Below are positions 20,743-46,413 of a DNA stretch of 64,000 bases, one piece after another. The position numbers were made by a program, and so were the translations under genes. Position 1 is the first letter of the stretch. Each line of letters starts with the position of its first letter. The stretch lies in the NCBI RefSeq assembly GCF_003334255.1, contig NZ_QOWU01000005.1, one strand, 5' to 3'. The notes beneath the pieces were generated by a model. It had not been told where the DNA came from, ran no database searches, and saw only the letters and a program-made list of their open reading frames with translations. Source of the stretch: Escherichia coli. GTDB lineage: Bacteria > Pseudomonadota > Gammaproteobacteria > Enterobacterales > Enterobacteriaceae.

Positions 20743-21334
20743 AAATGCAATGTTGCAGCACTATTTATCTCATATTATTTGAGGGTAATAACCTCACATT
20801 ATCCCTGAATTAAAAGTGGTAATAATAAAACATTATTTAAGAAATATCGCATGTGGAGACACTATATTAAATATTGTCAACCTAAAGAAACTCCTAAAAA
20901 CCATATTGAATGACACTTAATATAATTCTTAAAAATAGCCAATTACCGAATTGTTATCTTGCCTGCTATTCCGTTAGCTGTAACACTTCCTCCTGCATTA
21001 TTGGAAAGCCAATATTCAATTACCATAATGTCACCTTATATTCGGAAGTTAATTTCCGTAATAACCCTTTCTCATCAACGACTGCATGCTGAGAGGGTGT
21101 GAAAAATTAAACTAAATCAGTGTATTGGTAGCTAAAAAGCCAGGGGCGGTAGCGTGTCTGGATGCCTGAAAGACCAGTCTGAATTATTCTGTCAATAGCC
21201 TGCGGATGAAATCAATTTTTTTAGGACTGATGCCAGTTAAATTTTTATTCAATTAACTGCAAGGTAAATGTGCATGGCGACATTGCTATTAATAGTGCAC
21301 AGGATAATTACTCTGCCAAAGTGATAAATAAACA
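20743..21334 (+). promoter_or_regulatory. cps (colanic acid) promoter and long 5' leader; RcsAB-dependent promoter expected here, exact box not resolved
   Basis: About 590-bp AT-rich non-coding region upstream of wza containing the JUMPstart/ops element; an RcsAB-box-like sequence taagaaatatcgca lies near 20836-20849 (tentative). Confidence 0.5.
21118..21155 (+). promoter_or_regulatory. JUMPstart element with ops (RfaH recruitment) site GGCGGTAGCGTG at 21144-21155
   Basis: cagtgtattggtagctaaaaagccaggggcggtagcgtg matches the 39-bp JUMPstart consensus; ops 12-mer present. Confidence 0.85.
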
Positions 21335-32836: not shown

Positions 32837-34056
32837 AAATACTGGTCTACGGCATTAACTACTCGCCGGAGTTAACCGGCATCGGCAAATACACCGGCGA
32901 GATGGTGGAATGGCTGGCGGCACAAGGTCATGAGGTGCGGGTTATTACCGCACCGCCTTACTACCCGCAATGGCAGGTGGGCGAGAACTATTCCGCCTGG
33001 CGGTACAAACGAGAAGAGGGGGCCGCCACGGTGTGGCGCTGCCCGCTGTACGTGCCAAAACAGCCGAGCACCCTGAAACGCCTGTTACATCTCGGCAGTT
33101 TTGCCGTCAGCAGTTTCTTTCCTCTGATGGCGCAACGTCGCTGGAAGCCGAATCGCATTATCGGCGTGGTGCCAACGCTGTTTTGCACGCCGGGAATGCG
33201 CCTGCTGGCGAAACTCTCTGGTGCGCGTACCGTGCTGCATATTCAGGATTACGAAGTGGACGCCATGCTGGGGCTGGGCCTTGCCGGAAAAGGCAAAGGC
33301 GGCAAAGTGGCGCAGCTGGCGACGGCGTTCGAACGTAGCGGACTGCATAACGTCGATAACGTCTCCACGATTTCGCGTTCGATGATGAATAAAGCCATCG
33401 AAAAAGGCGTGGCGGCGGATAACATCATTTTCTTCCCCAACTGGTCGGAAATCGCCCGTTTTCAGCATGTTGCAGACGCCGATGTTGATGCCCTTCGTAA
33501 CCAGCTTGGCCTGCCGGATAACAAAAAAATCATTCTTTACTCCGGCAATATTGGTGAAAAGCAGGGGCTGGAAAACGTTATTGAAGCTGCCGATCTCCTG
33601 CGCGATGAACCGCTGATTTTTGCCATTGTCGGGCAGGGCGGCGGCAAAGCGCGGCTGGAAAAAATGGCGCAACAGCGTGGTCTGCGCAACATGCAATTTT
33701 TTCCGCTGCAATCGTATGACGCTTTACCCGCACTGCTGAAGATTGGCGATTGCCATCTGGTGGTGCAAAAACGCGGCGCGGCAGATGCCGTATTGCCGTC
33801 GAAACTGACCAATATTCTGGCGGTAGGCGGTAACGCGGTGATTACTGCAGAAGCCCACACAGAACTGGGACAGCTTTGCGAAACCTTTCCGGGCATTGCG
33901 GTTTGCGTTGAACCGGAATCGGTCGAGGCGCTGGTGGCGGGGATTCGTCAGGCGCTCCTGCTGCCCAAACACAACACGGTGGCACGTGAATATGCCGAAC
34001 GCACGCTCGATAAAGAGAACGTGTTACGTCAATTTATAAATGATATTCGGGGATAA
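32833..34056 (+). CDS. wcaI: Colanic acid glycosyltransferase WcaI (GT4, 407 aa)
   Basis: 407-aa ORF; operon position. Confidence 0.9.
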
Positions 34057-35495: not shown

Positions 35496-35686
<191 letters not shown>

Positions 35687-35775
35687 ATGAATGCGAAACC
35701 GCGGTGTAAATAATGACAAAAACAAAATTGGCCGTTTCGGTCAGGGCCAACTATTGCCTGAAAAAGGGTAACGAC

Positions 35776-40103: not shown

Positions 40104-40370
40104 GCCGGATGCGGCGTGAACGCCTTATCCGGCCTACGGCTCTGTGCTCGGGTCTTGTAGGTCTGATAAGACGCGTCAGCGTCGCATCAGGCACTGAATG
40201 CCGGATGCTGAATAAACGCCTTATCCGGCCTACGGTTCTGTGCTCGGGACTTGTAGGCCTGATAAGACGCGCCAGCGTCGCATCAGGCACTGAATGCCGG
40301 ATGCGGCGTGAACGCCTTATCAGTCCTACGGTTCTGTGCTCGGACCTTGTAGGCCTGATAAGACGCGCCA
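40104..40370. repeat. BIME: three tandem REP-containing units between wzxC and wcaK
   Basis: Three near-identical units gccggatgcggcgtgaacgccttatccggcctacggttctgtgctcgg..cttgtaggcctgataagacgcg.cagcgtcgcatcaggcactgaat. Confidence 0.8.
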
Positions 40371-45405: not shown

Positions 45406-45663
45406 TGAAAATCTGACCGAATGTAACGGTTGATAAGAAAATTATAACGGCGGTGAAGATTCGTGGCGAAAGTAATTTGTTGCGAATATTCCTGCCGTTA
45501 TTTTATATAAACAATCAGAATAACAACGAGTTAGCAATAGGATTTTAGTCAAAGTTTTCCAGGATTTTCCTTGTTTCCGTAGCTGATTGGTAAGACAATT
45601 AGTGTTTGAATTTTTCAGGTTTAGCGCGAGTGGGTAACGCTCGTCACATCGTAGGCATGCATG

Positions 45664-45702
45664 CAGTGCTCTGGTAGCTGTAAAGCCAGGGGCGGTAGCG
45701 TG
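45664..45702 (+). promoter_or_regulatory. JUMPstart element with ops site GGCGGTAGCGTG (45691-45702) upstream of the O-antigen operon
   Basis: cagtgctctggtagctgtaaagccaggggcggtagcgtg; near-identical to the copy upstream of wza. Confidence 0.85.
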
Positions 45703-45871
45703 TCTAGGGCAGGGAAAGATCACGTGGTGCTGCTTTTTTGTACTAAACAATTTGCATTTTATGTTCAATAATTGAGACATTCCTTATTACCTAAAACTGT
45801 TTTTCATTGCTTATACATGAGCAAATACTCCTTACATAATTAAGGAGAACAAAATTGAACTTAAAAAATTG

Positions 45872-46339
45872 ATGGAACATATTTCTATTATCCTCGATTA
45901 TAGACAAGCTAGGAAAGTGAAACATAAATTGTTTGATATTCTACTGTTGACTATTTGCGCACTTATTTCTGGTGCAGAAGGCTGAAAAGATATAGATGGT
46001 TTTTGGGAAACGCATCTTGATTTTTTTAACAATATCGTGATTTTGAAAATGGTATTCCTATTCACTATACCATTGCCAGAGTTGTATCCTGTATCAGTTC
46101 TACAAAATTTCATGAGTGTTTTATTAACTGGATGCGTGATTGTCATTCTTAAGATGATAAAGACGTCATTGCAATTGATGGAAAAACGCTCCGGCATTCT
46201 TATGACAAGAGTCGTCGCAGGAGAGCGATTCATGTCATTGGTGCATTCTCAACTATGCACAGTCTGGTCATCGGACAGATCAAGACGGATGAACAGAAAC
46301 TACCTAGCGTCAGTCCTTGCGGGGAGCGGGCTTTCGTAA
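45872..46339 (+). mobile_element. Truncated and disrupted H-repeat (ISAs1-family) transposase remnant
   Basis: Translation [37 protein letters not shown](stop)KDIDGFWETHLDFF... resembles the H-repeat protein N-terminus with an in-frame stop and frame disruptions; a C-terminal-like fragment [16 protein letters not shown] ends at 46339. Confidence 0.7.
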
Positions 46340-46413
46340 TCTTGCCTGTAGCGTTATTTGTTTTCGAGAATAAATATATAATACTCCATGTGGATATTTA
46401 GTTAAAAGAGGAT

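Follow-up and report, generated by a model that had tools for sequence, protein, structure and literature searches.

Two long operons for surface polysaccharides lie within the 64-kb stretch of Escherichia coli DNA analysed here (henceforth the window): one for colanic acid, the other for the O-antigen. The original prediction placed a JUMPstart/ops element at the head of each and noted that the second is separated from wzx, the first O-antigen gene, by the remains of an insertion sequence (IS). The locus raises a simple question: are both elements genuine loading sites for RfaH, and if so what becomes of transcription where a decayed transposable element stands between the loading site and the genes?

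JUMPstart has been known since 1994 (the report is said to be that of Hobbs & Reeves, 1994), and the connection of ops with RfaH since 1996-97; the JUMPstart/ops leader of the cps operon was reportedly the subject of Stout 1996, and ChIP-seq at these loci dates from 2022. At ops the polymerase pauses and the exposed non-template strand recruits RfaH, which displaces NusG. RfaH then lowers pausing and Rho-dependent termination and couples the ribosome to the transcribing polymerase.

The window runs from mdtABC through ibs/sib, yegL...asmA and yegH to wza-wzb-wzc-wcaA...wcaM, galF, an ISAs1 pseudogene and wzx-glf-GTs-wzy-GTs; the O-antigen genes are followed by gnd, ugd, a uronate epimerase gene, wzzB and hisIE.... 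The gene rfaH is located outside it. Overall identity to strain 214-4 is 99.5%; strain 23AR1101, compared in two short stretches (45650-45800 and 46300-47700), is 100% identical there; and the locus is syntenic with the annotated E. coli order wza...wcaM-galF-(ISAs1 pseudogene)-wzx.... On the basis of open reading frames and the 214-4 annotation, the wza-wzb-wzc-wcaA...wcaM colanic-acid operon, target of the first ops, occupies 21336-44337 (+ strand, 52.7% GC). The O-antigen genes, target of the second, occupy 46414-56112 (+ strand, 30.7% GC) in the order wzx, glf, GT4, ATP-grasp amidoligase, GT, wzy, GT, GT, GT2, after which comes gnd (56165-57571).

These genes appear to be of O167 type. PGAP, in the 214-4 annotation, uses the name 'O167 family' for wzx as well as wzy, and the set of genes present (glf, ATP-grasp amidoligase, uronate epimerase) fits O167 chemistry (L-alanine amide, Galf); the O167 O-antigen structure, including its amide-linked L-alanine, has been published (PMC7685785). 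No NCBIfam profile scored above cutoff on wzx or wzy. The O-antigen gene set is rare, being present in three of 5,426 complete E. coli genomes, and a search of the same 5,426 for mosaic partners of the O-antigen genes matched these three alone. All three carry the window's wzx behind the same arrangement of JUMPstart and IS remnant; the isolates are human and pig. One of the three (NZ_CP025840, NZ_CM132250 and NZ_CP062824) bears the record label O169:H41, against O167, and one of the two serotype labels is probably wrong. The source strain is probably an O167-type E. coli of enterotoxigenic lineage.

The two elements themselves are readily identified. The ops 12-mer, GGCGGTAGCGTG, occurs exactly, on the + strand, at 21145-21156 and 45691-45702, and these are its only copies in the window; even with one mismatch allowed there is no third site in the 64 kb (0.30 expected by chance). 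Each 12-mer forms the 3′ end of a match to the Rfam JUMPstart family (RF01707; gathering score 35), the covariance model of which (38/39 nt) includes a short CUGGU/GCCAG stem. In the colanic-acid (cps/wca) leader the match lies at 21118-21156 (+ strand, 57.3 bits, E 1.6e-10) and reads CAGTGTATTGGTAGCTAAAAAGCCAGGGGCGGTAGCGTG; in the O-antigen leader, between galF and wzx, it lies at 45664-45702 (+ strand, 60 bits, E 2.6e-11) and reads CAGTGCTCTGGTAGCTGTAAAGCCAGGGGCGGTAGCGTG. With an exact ops 12-mer in each leader, confirmed on re-inspection, and scores far above the gathering score, both predicted elements are real. The coordinates first given for the O-antigen copy were correct, but the colanic-acid copy ends at 21156 rather than at 21155.

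The two copies had also been described as near-identical, and alignment qualifies that description: the 39-mers agree at 34/39 positions. The 3′ 21 nt of both, together with the next 3 nt (TCT), show no differences, but the 5′ half contains five. According to the covariance-model alignment the 5-bp stem is intact in the O-antigen copy; in the wza copy a U replaces the C at the first stem position and still pairs with G. Both copies are therefore members of the family, stem included.

The RfaH loading site was defined as the 12-mer GGCGGTAGnnTG, with the 8-nt core GGCGGTAG, at the 3′ end of JUMPstart. Both sites conform exactly, and both are positioned as a loading site should be: on the + (sense, non-template) strand, in an intergenic 5′ leader, with a long operon downstream. 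From the cps copy to the wza ATG (21336) the distance is 179 nt, and from the O-antigen copy to the start of wzx it is 711 nt. Elsewhere in the window there are five 8-mer cores (GGCGGTAG), all in coding DNA and none a full ops 12-mer. A core is found inside wcaI (GGCGGTAGGCGG, 33819-33830, + strand), on the sense strand of the cps coding region; it is not expected to recruit RfaH, since ops-like sites in coding regions of strain CFT073 are not RfaH-bound (PMC9765446).

CFT073 also provides the closest evidence on function. ChIP-seq of RfaH in that strain gives signal at the orthologous wza-wcaM and wzx (O-antigen) ops leaders, and deletion of rfaH abolishes the signal at both; RfaH moreover counters elongation silencing by H-NS/StpA (PMC9765446). 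Transcription of cps has itself been described as JUMPstart/RfaH antitermination, citing Stout 1996 (PMC9976346). The claim of RfaH-type antitermination for both operons is upheld by this combination of bona fide sense-strand JUMPstart/ops elements, RfaH-bound orthologues and a published account of cps. By analogy with the orthologous CFT073 sites, RfaH would be expected to bind in the window as well.

What, then, lies behind the second ops? Three lines of evidence agree that the H-repeat remnant predicted between ops and wzx exists: PGAP annotates an ISAs1-family transposase pseudogene at this spot in a 99.9%-identical genome; tblastn with the ISEc1 transposase of strain SE11 gives 79-88% identity over aa 1-148 and 359-378; and the conceptual transposase product scores 115 bits against NCBIfam transpos_ISAs1 (cutoff 70), which places it in that family. 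In SE11 an intact ISEc1 occupies the same intergenic region. Alignment with this copy, and with four independent ISAs1 copies from other loci, set the termini of the remnant: it is an internally deleted ISAs1/ISEc1 (H-repeat) element of 638 bp at 45711-46348 (+ strand), co-oriented with the operon. The terminal inverted repeats of the ISAs1 family are found at both ends, the left, AGGGAAAGATCACG, at 45711-45724 forming the 5′ terminus and the right, CGTAATCTTGCCTG, at 46335-46348 forming the 3′ terminus.

Identity between the remnant and the SE11 element is 91.3% over 45710-46292 and 94.8% over 46289-46346, with ∼646 bp of interior deleted at 46292/46293. The transposase pseudogene (45854-46296, + strand, defined by tblastn with the SE11 ISEc1 transposase) covers codons 1-148 of 378 and is damaged three times over: the start ATG has become ATT (45854), a TGA stands at 45983-45985, and there is a frameshift near 46021. 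The last 20 codons of the transposase survive at 46277-46336. There is no intact transposase ORF; the element is a non-autonomous remnant. The 'transposase scar' of the original prediction is thus an IS relic, as claimed, but it is not one-ended: it is a two-ended, internally deleted ISAs1 that begins 8 nt past ops.

Alignment of several H-repeat copies at their left ends places these 8 nt (TCTAGGGC, 45703-45710, + strand) between ops and the inverted repeat; some of them may be part of a longer IS terminus. No target-site duplication surrounds the remnant, the flanks GTGTCTAGGGC and TAGCGTTATTT showing no match; an 11-bp direct repeat does flank one reference copy (L004). One candidate duplication was considered: GTAGCGT, which constitutes ops positions 5-11, occurs again at 46348-46354, past the right end, as though the element had inserted into ops. 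It was dismissed on two grounds: the repeat does not abut the left inverted repeat, and other junction classes lack it. To the right of the remnant, the serotype-specific leader is 65 nt long (46349-46413, + strand) and has a GAGG Shine-Dalgarno at 46408-46411. The start of wzx is ambiguous: the GTG at 46414 (PGAP and the ORF list) is only 2 nt past the GAGG, and an alternative in-frame GTG at 46417 has the more usual spacing of 5 nt.

Whether polymerase could cross the remnant depends on what it would meet there. No intrinsic terminator is predicted on the + strand between 45380 and 46480; the T-run at 45734-45739 was examined as a possible terminator within the remnant and dismissed, having no stable hairpin before it. 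Folds of the leader are no more stable than those of shuffled sequences. The 711-nt leader is stop-rich in all frames, AT-rich and largely untranslated, and contains a C>G stretch at 45729-45860 (C/G 1.6-2.1) that could be a Rho loading site. Given the lack of a sense-strand intrinsic terminator, any barrier added by the remnant would be of the Rho or H-NS type, which is the kind that RfaH suppresses. At 30.7% GC, as against 52.7% for cps, the O-antigen genes belong to the composition class on which H-NS and Rho act, and even if the remnant were absent the operon would require RfaH.

Promoters are less clearly marked than the loading sites. The O-antigen promoter is expected in the galF-JUMPstart intergenic region (45406-45663, + strand), which the SE11 alignment shows to be near-identical to other E. 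coli; a promoter scan of this region returned no strong candidate on the + strand. Upstream of the cps JUMPstart a consensus scan picked out the promoter-like TTGGAA-17-CATAAT at 21001-21029 (+ strand). This is a weak candidate only, since the scan near the cps JUMPstart gave fewer promoter-like sites than shuffled sequence.

We hold with good confidence that the two elements are the standard RfaH-loading JUMPstart/ops sites of the colanic-acid and O-antigen operons, and that this, together with a passenger remnant behind the second, is the best explanation of the locus. Polymerase would start at an upstream promoter, transcribe ops and pause there, whereupon ops DNA of the non-template strand would recruit RfaH in place of NusG. 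RfaH would suppress pausing, Rho-dependent termination and H-NS/StpA roadblocks and would couple the ribosome, allowing the long operon to be completed. In this O-type the native leader past ops would have been replaced by an old, deleted, co-oriented ISAs1 lying 8 nt after ops: a decaying passenger that stretches the leader to 711 nt and that the RfaH-modified polymerase would cross on its way into wzx. That polymerase would read through the remnant is suggested by two features, its position downstream of the loading point and its lack of a sense-strand intrinsic terminator; on such sequence evidence both the read-through and its dependence on RfaH are plausible. In other O-types, for example in an O15:H18 strain, up to ∼2.7 kb of co-oriented ISAs1 DNA lies between ops and wzx.

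The age of the arrangement can be gauged from a metagenome contig, OJNQ01013183.1, in which JUMPstart, deleted IS and wzx form one continuous alignment with the window (45651-48254). The JUMPstart is identical at 39/39 positions and the 8-nt spacer at 8/8 (47/47 for the two together); the IS remnant is 97.8% identical (14 substitutions in 638), the 65-nt leader from IS to wzx matches at 64/65, and wzx, its ORF intact, is 99.6% identical with two amino acid changes. Every inactivating lesion of the IS is common to the two copies, and the remnant is therefore older than their split. It decays at about five times the rate of wzx, as expected of neutral DNA, and the invariance of ops and spacer is compatible with constraint, 47 nt being too short for proof. 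The arrangement is, on this comparison, old and compatible with a maintained wzx. The first 575 nt of glf are 82.5% identical. Because the module is 98-100% identical and glf is not, a recombination breakpoint is placed at or near the wzx/glf boundary: the JUMPstart-IS-wzx module is shared with an O-antigen cluster of different composition.

These data bear on a rival reading in which the O-antigen genes are transcribed mainly from a promoter in or just after the remnant, the remnant is polar or irrelevant, and the second ops contributes little. A perfect -10 hexamer (TATAAT, 46377-46382) does precede the wzx start by 32 nt, but the -35 that goes with it is a poor one (2/6), and the site went uncalled in the + strand promoter scan. 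The left end of the IS holds promoter-like transposase sites at 45744-45772 and 45812-45840, and Rho could plausibly act on the leader, which is long, untranslated and has a C>G stretch. However, transcripts begun past ops would be without RfaH and would have to cross ∼9.7 kb of 30.7%-GC DNA unaided. In addition, diverged copies show no difference in ops or the 8-nt spacer while their IS carries 2.2% substitutions, a contrast that at 47 nt is statistically not decisive. Taking both sides together we judge a promoter downstream of ops to be a quite improbable main source of O-antigen transcripts.

That the remnant instead crippled O-antigen expression, leaving a rough or semi-rough strain in which the second ops is a relic before a silenced operon, is scarcely credible: all O-antigen ORFs in the window are intact, the arrangement is fixed in three complete genomes from human and pig isolates, the diverged lineage retains an intact wzx with two changes in 421 aa, and serotyped O15 and O176 strains have still more IS DNA at the same place.

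Among known systems the closest are the E. coli leaders with JUMPstart/ops, those of the cps (wza-wcaM) operon and of the O-antigen (rfb/wzx) operon, which have the same 39-bp element in the same positions and orientation, ahead of the same kind of long polysaccharide operon. From the known cps leader the window's cps copy shows no difference; from known O-antigen leaders the window departs in that a deleted ISAs1 takes the place of serotype-specific sequence past ops and brings the leader to 711 nt. The hlyCABD, kps, waaQ/rfaQ and F tra operons likewise have ops in the non-template strand of a 5′ leader, and likewise place a long, AT-rich, horizontally acquired operon under post-initiation control; their cargo is different, and from the evidence gathered an IS directly after ops is not known there. 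A decayed H-repeat at a junction between DNA of different origin, without target-site duplication, also occurs in Salmonella group D2 (Xiang et al. 1994, discussed in PMC3715488). The D2 remnant is situated mid-cluster, whereas the window's remnant occupies the very 5′ end of the cluster, 8 nt past ops, and has kept both termini round the deletion.

Both elements are thus textbook regulatory sites, the biology of which is already known, and they serve annotation as markers of the 5′ limits of two surface-polysaccharide operons in O167-type E. coli and of their RfaH dependence. The one strain-specific feature is the old, decayed IS remnant that starts 8 nt past the second ops. What is new is anatomical: a two-ended, deleted ISAs1, old and neutrally decaying, and the recurrence of H-repeat junctions close to ops.

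This recurrence emerged from a query composed of JUMPstart and the IS left end, which was covered to at least 80% in 108 of 5,426 genomes. Representatives of the 108 were fetched, the design of the query biasing the sample towards close junctions. Among the representatives sampled, H-repeat left ends are found 3-11 nt past the O-antigen ops and define at least three junction sequences; in the fetched loci they are positioned at L007:2542-2575, L009:2542, L002:4292 and, in L012, L013 and L014, at ∼4042. The junction of the window (45703-45711), GTG-TCTAGGG(G)C-AGGGAAAGAT with 8-9 nt, is shared with ATCC 8739/NCTC86 and an O15:H18 ST69 strain; within this class the H-repeat interiors are of different subtypes. 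In an O176:H45 strain the junction is GTG-CCA-AGGAAAGATCACG (3 nt), in CP131 and B379 it is GTG-GGGGAATTCTC-AGGGAAAGATCACG (11 nt), and in Z1323CEC0013 and SLK172 it is GTG-TCTAGGGG-AAGATCATCG, with a truncated left end. SE11 has 330 nt of native leader between ops and IS. All of these elements point in the direction of the operon and have serotype-specific DNA to their right. Judging from a ydcC copy (GGGGCAGATTC-AGGG), the IS terminus may extend ∼11 nt further left, in which event it would begin 0-4 nt from ops.

H-repeats are known as recombination junctions in O-antigen clusters (PMC3715488), and IS elements drive change in O-antigen gene clusters (PMC4379981). A published description of an H-repeat adjoining JUMPstart was not found in the literature searched, subscription journals being outside its coverage. 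One speculative interpretation of the recurrent junctions, which we consider rather unlikely, is that the 3′ edge of ops is a preferred point of ISAs1 insertion or recombination, JUMPstart and H-repeat together forming a portable adaptor for the swapping of O-antigen cassettes. Other explanations are possible: IS-mediated deletions may have been trimmed to a selected boundary, or a single old junction may have been reshaped by gene conversion and small indels. If the recurrence reflects targeting or selection rather than shared ancestry, then O-antigen diversification by IS-mediated cassette exchange would be tied to RfaH-antiterminated expression; and if the adaptor interpretation were true, complete O-antigen cassettes would be exchanged downstream of an RfaH loading site, which would guarantee that they are expressed.

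Wider scans extended the search for such junctions. Among 100,044 species-representative genomes scanned for GGCGGTAGCGTGTCTAGGG there was one match only, in Nitrincola tibetensis (L011:4853-4871): the sequence is exact, lies in an intergenic leader and is followed after ∼300 nt by three large ORFs in the same orientation (759, 441 and 734 aa). As an H-repeat junction this site was discarded, there being no H-repeat, no JUMPstart 5′ half and no Rfam match, and it is most simply put down to chance; it may nonetheless be an RfaH-type ops in a distant gammaproteobacterium. A scan of metagenomes with GGCGGTAGCGTGN{0,30}GGAAAGAT returned 42 matches, of which 39 were chance ops-like sequences and three were true junctions, with no new class among them.

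Two of the sampled strains have peculiarities of their own. In SLK172 the O-antigen ops (L008:2541-2552) reads GGCGGTAGCGTA, with G12 changed to A at the base after the pause site; this variant ops lies upstream of ISAs1 genes and a GT4 gene. The O15:H18 ST69 strain has ∼2.7 kb of IS DNA before wzx, and within it (L012:4396-6640) is an apparently intact ISAs1 transposase gene of 378 aa. As the first ORF past the O-antigen ops, this transposase gene would belong to the O-antigen transcript and be read by RfaH-modified polymerase.

Several RNA features were observed elsewhere in the window. The known sibA/sibB locus, between mdtA and yegL, has two genes for Sib antitoxin sRNAs at 4827-4969 and 5156-5304 (- strand; RF00113, 140 and 150 bits), both opposite ORFs for ibs type I toxins. 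Within the colanic-acid operon, the cpsB-cpsG gap holds an algC RNA motif (RF02929, 78 bits) at 35722-35771 (+ strand), and REP-derived naRNA4 matches on the - strand are present both in that gap (35565-35635) and in the wzxC-wcaK gap (40256-40326).
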